DNA of 64,000 nucleotides, taken from Eledone cirrhosa. Lineage: Eukaryota. The notes below the pieces were generated by a model, which saw only the letters and a list, made by a program, of their open reading frames with translations, had not been told where the DNA came from and did no database searches. The translations under genes and the position numbers were made by a program. The stretch spans positions 56,854,001-56,918,000 of the forward strand of contig OZ024745.1 in the NCBI GenBank assembly GCA_964016885.1, read 5' to 3'. Each line of letters begins with the position of its first letter. Positions within the stretch are counted from its first letter, which is position 1. Shown piece after piece: positions 17,337-18,245 of this stretch.

Positions 17337-18245
17337 GTAGAAATCTTATAATGAAATGAGTCGTCTAGGAAATGATATATTTGATATATCTCATATGAAA
17401 AAATACAGCCAATTATCCACACAATACAATATAGTTAGCACCCCAAACGATTAATTGGGAATATACTCAGGTATTTCCTAATGTTTGTTGAGTGAGTTAG
17501 AATTTGGCCGGAGTATCGCTTTTAGCTTTCTCCGATTATGTATTTATATATTTACTCTTGGAGCAACAAATATGAACTTTCCCGATATAAGGTATGACTC
17601 TCTTTGTTTATTTTTTAAATGAATATTGATTGTTTGTTCTTGTATCTCATTCTGTTATTTTGCCCGAGAAAATATCTATATGTGTCATAAAGCGATGCGC
17701 ACATATGGTTGTTTTTTCATATCCAATTGATTTCTTAGCATGTGGCTTGAATTCCTTTCAGAGTTCAACGACCTGCGCATGTATTGTTTTTGGCGGTAGC
17801 CTCCTTCCTCCTATTTTCGGGACAGTGTGAGGTTTTCTTTAGAACTGTTGGACTAACAACCTAGCAGTCTCCTCAAGCACTGATGGTGATTATCGCTAAA
17901 TATTGATGTTAATTTGATTATCGATATTAATGTTATTGGGTATCCACTGAAGATTTATAAGTGCCCACTTGAATAATAAGTATCTGTTGATCTTATACAA
18001 GATTCTACATAACTTGGTAACATTTCACCCAACATGTAGAAATCTTATAATGAAACGAGTCGTCTGGGAAATGATATATTTGATATATCTCATGAAAAAA
18101 TACAGCCAATTATCCACACAATACAATATAGTTAGCACCCCAAACGATTAATTGGGAATATACTCAGGTATTTCCTAATGTTTGTTGAGTGAGTTGGAAT
18201 TTGGCCGGAGTATCGCTTTTAGCTTTCTCCGATTATGTATTTATA
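17337..18245 (+). mobile_element. family H non-coding partial-tandem element (period 699 bp) in microsatellite
   Basis: 17337-17552 is repeated at 18036-18245; homologues on the minus strand at 34145-34363 and 58205-58760; contains a hammerhead motif. Confidence 0.8.
17943..18068 (+). ncRNA. type I hammerhead ribozyme motif with extended stem II
   Basis: TCCA-CTGAAGA(17947-53)-T-TTATAAG..82 nt..CTTATAA-T-GAAA(18052-55)-CGAGTCG-TC|TGGG; predicted GUC cleavage after 18064. Confidence 0.7.

Follow-up and report, generated by a model that had tools for sequence, protein, structure and literature searches.

The window insertion and its hammerhead motif

The window, that is, the whole stretch of 64,000 nucleotides of Eledone cirrhosa DNA that was analysed, harbors at 17337..18245 (+) a 5'-truncated insertion of a repeat, which is assigned to subfamily A and merges at its 3' end into a (TA)n tract, the boundary being blurred to about 18251. 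The insertion comprises 1.3 units with a period of 699, its terminal repeat of 213-218 nt is 97% alike, and the longest ATG frame of the subfamily A unit is 41 aa, in agreement with the initial annotation, which had described a 1.3-mer of a 699-bp unit without a recognisable ORF. One complete hammerhead is present in this copy, and its upstream partner consists of the 3' half alone (17337..17370, +), which is broken inside hairpin P2b and does not fold independently. The 20-nt motif common to the subfamilies is located at 18174..18193 (+), with a first copy at 17477-17496. The TA-like terminal site occurs internally at 17538..17559 (+), where the unit runs on and reverse transcription would presumably start, and again at 18235..18251 (+), where it is joined to (TA)n and forms the fixed 3' terminus 171 nt past the predicted cut. 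The family recurs on the other side of the (TA)n tract as an inverted fragment of 64 nt from its 3' terminus (18338..18401, -); such opposed family ends across a single (TA)n tract were also noticed at loci L030 and L042.

The complete hammerhead (17943-18068, +) can be read from the sequence as a type I motif with an intact core, in which CUGANGA, GAAA and NUH are arranged around three helices and stem I is open; positions follow the standard hammerhead numbering. The 5' strand of stem I and the catalytic core CUGAAGA occupy 17943..17953 (+), where TCCA (17943-46) pairs with TGGG (18065-68) and is followed by CTGAAGA (17947-53). The 5' arm of stem II (17954..17962, +) begins with U10.1, and its TTATAAG (17955-61) pairs with CTTATAA (18044-50) above a U.U at 10.1-11.1, leaving 82 nt between the arms. 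This intervening sequence contains the junction GCCC (17963..17966, +), hairpin P2a (17968..18001, +) and hairpin P2b (18003..18041, +), the last of which is constructed of an outer helix of 7 bp, an internal loop with conserved sequence and an inner helix of 3 bp. The remaining part (18043..18068, +) includes the 3' arm of stem II, U11.1, GAAA (18052-55), the self-complementary stem III (18055-63), GUC with C17 at 18064, and the 3' strand of stem I, and cleavage is predicted 3' of C17. Just upstream of stem I, GGGY (17938..17941, +) represents the 5' strand of a candidate pseudoknot with the junction GCCC, whose conservation reaches 95-98%. The hammerhead with an oversized stem II that had been proposed here from the letters alone is thus confirmed.

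The initial annotation had further recognised two diverged copies in the window, both of which are real, but they belong to different subfamilies that are 68% alike, and a third fragment accompanies them. The second copy is a subfamily B insertion of 0.8 unit (58196..58793, -) with a complete hammerhead at 58385-58505 and its core at 58501, while the third is a subfamily C 3' fragment (34143..34363, -) with only the 3' half of the hammerhead. Several other features were noticed alongside. An unrelated repeat of about 200 bp, partly dispersed and partly in tandem, lies at 16031-16573, 15180-15373, 49374-49567 and 60220-60613. At 27802-28320 (+) and 31459-32322 (-), a Neptune-like PLE has left GIY-YIG fragments from its C-terminus in inverted arrangement; a minimal hammerhead with a stem-loop II of 18 nt terminates this PLE family (L058, L031). 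The broken element at 10730-14793 (+), with RT-type frames at 12401-13737, is presumably LINE-like.

Copy number, subfamilies and insertion pattern

Searches of the 3.0-Gb genome with six different copies as queries revealed a family with at least six subfamilies (A-F), whose representative units are 699-1007 bp long, 65-85% alike and of low GC content (31-34%), with longest ATG frames of 32-93 aa. The 20-nt 3' motif gave 6,937 exact genome matches and its control none. A pattern of the two core halves spaced 88-102 nt apart gave 3,517 exact matches while the reversed control had none, and hence the hammerhead is not a chance occurrence; among 222 distinct copies chosen without any filter on the core, it is intact in 212. 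The family consists, as expected for non-LTR retrozymes, of non-coding head-to-tail units with low GC and one type I hammerhead each. Two or more consecutive complete hammerheads, which mark an "active" copy in the definition of Li et al., are absent from the window copy and present, for example, in L009, L033, L036, L051 and L453. The tandem unit of the initial annotation stands insofar as arrays exist, but the majority of insertions are partial units rather than long tandem arrays.

The unit of subfamily C reaches 1007 bp because some 260 nt, with the terminal TA-like site among them, are duplicated inside it (L081 and other C loci), and the 5' ends of subfamily C loci were observed to cluster at both copies of this site. 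A distant, older and decayed non-coding relative, termed G, shares the layout and differs in sequence, its copies being 79-88% alike. Family-related high-copy DNA was also detected in sequencing runs under two species labels. A pattern scan of metagenomes yielded 117 matches, which are regarded as chance since the family profile confirmed none of them. Neighbouring copies of mixed subfamilies (L016, L096, L133, L057) were considered as fusions at the cut and rejected, as TA runs split them into separate insertions.

The insertion pattern was evaluated on the first 100 listed 3'-motif sites, which corresponded to 95 loci and, after removal of two inner array units, to 93. The (TA)n at the fixed TA-like site ends 85 of these 93 arrays and three run on into a next unit, the fixed end being situated 170-181 nt (about 175) past the predicted cut. 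Copies are dispersed on many chromosomes and lack an A-tail, and those exceeding one unit continue back into the unit itself, with periods of 678-1007. By a nearest-neighbour test, intended to reveal a circular template, the tandem units of one insertion are nearest to each other in only 6 of 18 cases. The 5' ends, scored in 92 loci after one cut off by the locus edge was left out, are variably truncated; 67 of them lie beyond one cut site, which is thus crossed, and seven copies cross two. With its microsatellite target, internally fixed 3' end, truncated 5' ends and partial tandems, the family conforms to mobilisation of the PLE type.

The distribution of the 5' ends carries further hints. 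Eighteen of the 92 fall 0-27 nt after the predicted cut, which corresponds to a hazard ratio of 2.9 (p 0.0008) after TA/AT covariates, in windows, the 28-nt one included, that were set after the data had been seen and with positions partly adjusted by eye (automatic calls gave 17). Six of 92 lie at a full unit lap (ratio 4.4, p 0.005), while two of 93 fall exactly at 0/+1. This pattern hints at a mix of cut linear templates and circular or uncut ones, a signal that is confounded, as stalling of reverse transcription at structure or TA microhomology can also yield such an enrichment.

No contiguity with a PLE reading frame (RT plus GIY-YIG) was found in any of 265 loci, drawn from about 7,000 motif sites in the genome, in searches that included ORF scans. 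Accordingly no locus read extends into a full coding PLE, and the retrozyme-like non-coding family suggested by the initial annotation is borne out. A PLE fragment on the same strand lies upstream in 10 of the 265 loci, at a distance of 536-1352 nt, and the junctions hold a (TA)5+ run in eight of them and a short TA-rich stretch in the other two. PLE fragments around L010 were examined as a linked ORF and rejected, for (TA)n intervenes and they belong to other elements.

The stem II domain and its counterparts

The insert is built of two hairpins, P2a and P2b, seated on an 8-bp stem II. This structure was derived from an alignment of the two window copies and 14 cluster representatives of 157 extracted locus copies. 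Nine of 32 pairs are changed on both sides, 97.5% of the cells pair (34-51% in slid controls), and none of 500 shuffles reached this level; the counts take no account of relatedness and are not probabilities, so that the signal reflects a handful of subfamily-level events. The compensatory changes sought by the initial annotation are consequently present. The divergence that it ascribed to the remainder of the insertion is true of the sequence but not of the structure, given the second hairpin with compensatory changes and the near-invariant GCCC. When seven of the 16 extracted G copies are added, double-sided changes affect seven of 17 pairs, of which six belong to P2a, and 43 of 500 shuffles match this alignment on pair count alone. 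Stem II itself is closed, with two of its eight pairs changed on both sides; position 10.1-11.1 is U.U in A-C, G-C in D and A-U in E, and a one-column shift is required in F. Folding z-scores of the insert are -2.4 for the window copy and -3.4, -4.1 and -5.4 for three other subfamilies.

The two hairpins differ in their conservation across the 222 distinct copies: P2b is mostly 98-100% conserved, unpaired loop bases included, while P2a is variable in sequence and its pairing is preserved through compensatory changes. GGGY and the junction GCCC are 86-98% conserved and can pair while stems I and II are left untouched, full pairing being possible in 103 of the 123 distinct A-F copies scored. No double-sided change was detected in this helix, either in the alignment above or after addition of G, and GGGY/GCCC is hence presented as a candidate pseudoknot that is conserved without covariation. 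The conserved internal loop of P2b may fit the protein-binding or regulatory module envisaged in the initial annotation, and a role in tertiary folding fits it equally. A word CATAAC/CATAAA, noticed post hoc, recurs in the stem II inserts of A-F and of the otherwise unrelated L383, L336 and L084/L089; it is possibly a protein contact, or chance.

The lowest-energy fold of the window copy, at -24.6 kcal/mol, is not the hammerhead, which lies about 8 kcal/mol higher at -16.8 without the pseudoknot. Stem III is self-complementary through differing sequences in A-G, just as had been claimed from two copies; alone it folds poorly, and duplexes reach -6 to -15 kcal/mol, which fits the dimer model put forward in PMC4209133. 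The expectation that such an expanded ribozyme would escape searches was correct, as Rfam hammerhead models gave no match on 17880-18130 up to E 10. A wider Rfam search of the window showed, among the matches listed (150 of 214), only miRNA matches driven by microsatellites. Four loci from other long-stem families were likewise without a hammerhead match at the gathering score.

A generic scan of flanking DNA for type I hammerheads disclosed others with 24-115 nt in stem II, while three shuffles gave one match. Among them is that of a young, intact PLE (L383-L387, e.g., G000:C5:61857500-61867499) with a period of about 3.6 kb and a 785-codon frame (773 aa from Met), whose product contains RWK, DKT, a CxCx5C linker and the endonuclease CxxC and CxH, and which targets (TA)n. 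These motifs are the marks of the Hydra clade (PMC8557442), in which the element is placed by them; Pfam gave no match on the protein. The hammerhead of its pLTR has an unbranched stem II of 88-91 nt. Endonucleases of this type number at least 150 genome copies with 99-100% identity, and a long hammerhead follows the endonuclease in 29 of 30 Hydra-element loci, the autonomous elements having non-coding 3' regions of 0.5-1.8 kb with long-stem hammerheads. Additionally, L383-L387 have two sites at which the 3' end falls, some 45 and 160 nt beyond the cut, and show a second hammerhead-like half core about 119 nt after the stop codon. Two further families have a stem II of 85 nt (L336, + 1203) and 101-115 nt (L090, - 1296; L348, + 2442; L155, - 2425), and a Hydra-type endonuclease ends upstream of their hammerheads in L336, L090 and L348. 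An expanded hammerhead is thus present in the retrozyme family, as annotated, but is not peculiar to it, given that an intact autonomous Hydra-clade PLE and two Hydra-endonuclease-linked families carry one as well.

Further type I hammerhead families with 48-103 nt in stem II were noticed in L084 (- 2641), L089 (- 278) and L329 (- 2230); L070 (+ 2946) and L064 (- 226); L012 (+ 682) and L164 (- 2382); L128 (+ 370); L075 (- 259); and L023 (- 1308), of which L084 resembles another short non-coding tandem unit.

Comparison with described hammerheads emphasises both kinship and novelty. The pLTR hammerheads of Hydra-clade PLEs (Craig et al. 2021, PMC8557442 File S2) resemble the present one in the U between A9 and the stem and the U before GAA (U.U), a stem I of 4-7 bp, a short self-complementary stem III and (TA)n targets, whereas their loops II in that file span 3-10 nt, with a file maximum of 29-35 nt in the spike-moss PLE-X1, against 82 here. 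For Naiad, the same paper notes eight "half core" cases, in which 35-50 nt separate the two halves of the core, and gives no structure. Minimal PLE hammerheads (PMC4209133) share a helix II of 7-8 bp, a helix I of 4-5 bp, a palindromic helix III and the dimer model, while a large structured helix II domain, present here, is not described in the accessible part of that source. The axolotl HHR_Amex2 likewise has U.U as the basal pair of helix II, and U10.1-U11.1 is tolerated in hammerheads according to Perreault et al. (2011, PMC3088659). The pseudoknotted hammerheads of the latter authors employ a Watson-Crick contact between the peripheries of stems I and II in place of loop-loop contacts; the candidate contact of this family, by comparison, would run from the leader 5' of an open stem I to a strand of the junction within a branched stem II.

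Origin and mobilisation of the family

The family shares with animal non-LTR retrozymes (PMC7229834; bioRxiv 10.64898/2026.07.22.740005) the head-to-tail arrangement of non-coding, low-GC units, each with a single type I hammerhead, as well as thousands of copies and the coexistence of PLEs. It departs from them in the branched stem II domain of 94-98 nt, the retrozyme hammerheads described in these sources being canonical and compact, and in units of 699-1007 bp, mostly as partial insertions, compared with typical units of about 300 (reported range 51-972). Unlike Hydra-clade PLEs, which carry an RT-EN frame (PMC8557442), it has none. A PLE origin of retrozymes has been argued in the above bioRxiv report. 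In the anole Poseidon PLE (Frangieh et al. 2024, PMC11167929), fixed genomic 3' ends past the hammerhead cut, AT-rich targets and an internal RT start recall the present pattern, and internal initiation downstream of the hammerhead as well as protein-assisted cleavage have been established; that element, however, is autonomous and its start site is not homologous to the target, whereas the end site here is itself TA-like.

The repeat is accordingly described as a high-copy non-coding element with a type I hammerhead motif and a branched, covarying stem II extension, with subfamilies, a fixed (TA)n 3' end, variable 5' truncation and partial tandems. We consider it probable, with reasonable confidence, that it is a non-autonomous PLE (non-LTR retrozyme) which likely cleaves itself and which an RT-endonuclease of Penelope type, acting in trans and most likely from the Hydra clade, likely copies into (TA)n. 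Long-stem Hydra elements in the same genome, together with the published traits of Hydra hammerheads, make this clade the likeliest source and mobilising partner. The target does not single out one partner clade, because Neptune-like elements in this genome also end at (TA)n. A search combining the 3' motif with the Hydra N-terminal word gave six matches against two in the control and no family; the Hydra-element pLTR has no alignable DNA homology with units A and B, the short words shared being post hoc, and neither this comparison nor the targeted pattern found an autonomous element homologous to the unit.

Under this reading, arrays longer than one unit would be transcribed, and cleavage by the hammerhead would follow C17, probably in dimers formed through the self-complementary stem III. 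Folding is the most likely function of the insert, which would place a three-way junction on stem II; the GGGY/GCCC pseudoknot would dock this junction to the stem I leader and stand in for the loop I-loop II contact that is otherwise usual, and a protein or tertiary contact may be provided by the conserved loop of P2b. Part of the cut monomers would then be ligated to circles, intermediates of a kind established for the coral, mussel and axolotl retrozymes (PMC7229834). The PLE protein would nick (TA)n and reverse transcription would start internally at the TA-like site about 175 nt past the cut, with the cDNA ending at the cut 5' end, at random, or after at least one lap, which would generate the observed lengths. 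Weighing against this reading, eight of nine predicted Xenopus retrozyme dimers gave no cleavage in vitro (bioRxiv 2026.07.22.740005), and the anole PLE used RNA that was uncut; the lowest-energy fold of the window copy and the nearest-neighbour result count on the same side.

It is conceivable instead, although we consider it improbable, that this non-autonomous PLE derivative uses the hammerhead fold mainly as a protein-binding handle, or that the ribozyme is weakly active, so that uncut linear multimers serve as templates and no circles are involved. Copies crossing the cut site intact (67 of 92) speak for it, as do the anole PLE, in which ribozyme mutants insert nonetheless and uncut RNA is the dominant substrate (PMC11167929), and the poor cleavage of metazoan PLE hammerheads in vitro (PMC4209133). 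The lap-point ends coincide with the TA-like site, and microhomology alone could therefore explain them. Against such a view stand the retention of the core and of a self-complementary stem III across subfamilies that are 65-85% alike and in G, and an excess of 5' ends immediately past the cut for which TA content does not account.

Very little weight is given to the view that an autonomous PLE went unsampled in its full-length form and that the unit is its pseudo-LTR or a long UTR. The non-coding 3' regions of the autonomous Hydra elements, with their long-stem hammerheads, would suit it, and the loci read amount to 265 of about 7,000 motif sites; yet copies beyond one unit re-enter the unit, none of the loci joins an ORF, and the ten upstream PLE fragments are set off across TA-rich junctions. 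Similarly little weight goes to a SINE-like or satellite repeat that was multiplied by a LINE or as DNA, and whose hammerhead is a relic or arose by chance; some short tandem arrays of up to about three units can be cited for it, but it is already largely refuted. It is contradicted by dispersed copies that vary at the 5' end, stop internally at a single (TA)n-joined 3' site and lack an A-tail, and by a core and pairing kept under divergence.

The retrozyme reading with trans mobilisation is thus retained, and the long stem II is not specific to retrozymes, since the intact Hydra-clade PLE also carries one. As a tentative extension, which we regard as possible but on balance doubtful, hammerheads whose stem II extends over 50-115 nt, either unbranched or with branches and a pseudoknot, might constitute an overlooked structural class used by Hydra-clade PLEs and by the elements that parasitise them. 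In that case the extra domain would act as a handle for the PLE protein or as a folding switch for cleavage and circularisation, the genomic copies would directly record cut linear and circular templates, and some PLEs reported without a hammerhead or with a "half core" may carry such ribozymes.

The family is real and abundant, and represents a structurally new variant among non-LTR retrozymes or non-autonomous PLEs with a Hydra-type hammerhead. Natural hammerheads with a large structured stem II domain are undescribed in the literature searched, which gave no account of a branched domain of 80-100 nt; supplements, repeat libraries and the PLE hammerhead variants of Lunse et al. may list some. 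As thousands of copies are invisible to Rfam, and by extension presumably to short-loop descriptors, current counts of retrozymes and PLE ribozymes are probably underestimates. Meanwhile, the fixed internal start, the (TA)n target and the pile-ups of ends at the cut and at full laps make the question of retrozyme mobilisation testable, with an intact candidate RT-endonuclease lying in the same genome as the retrozyme family. If active, this ribozyme would rank among the most elaborate natural hammerhead architectures, with possible allosteric or protein-assisted control.
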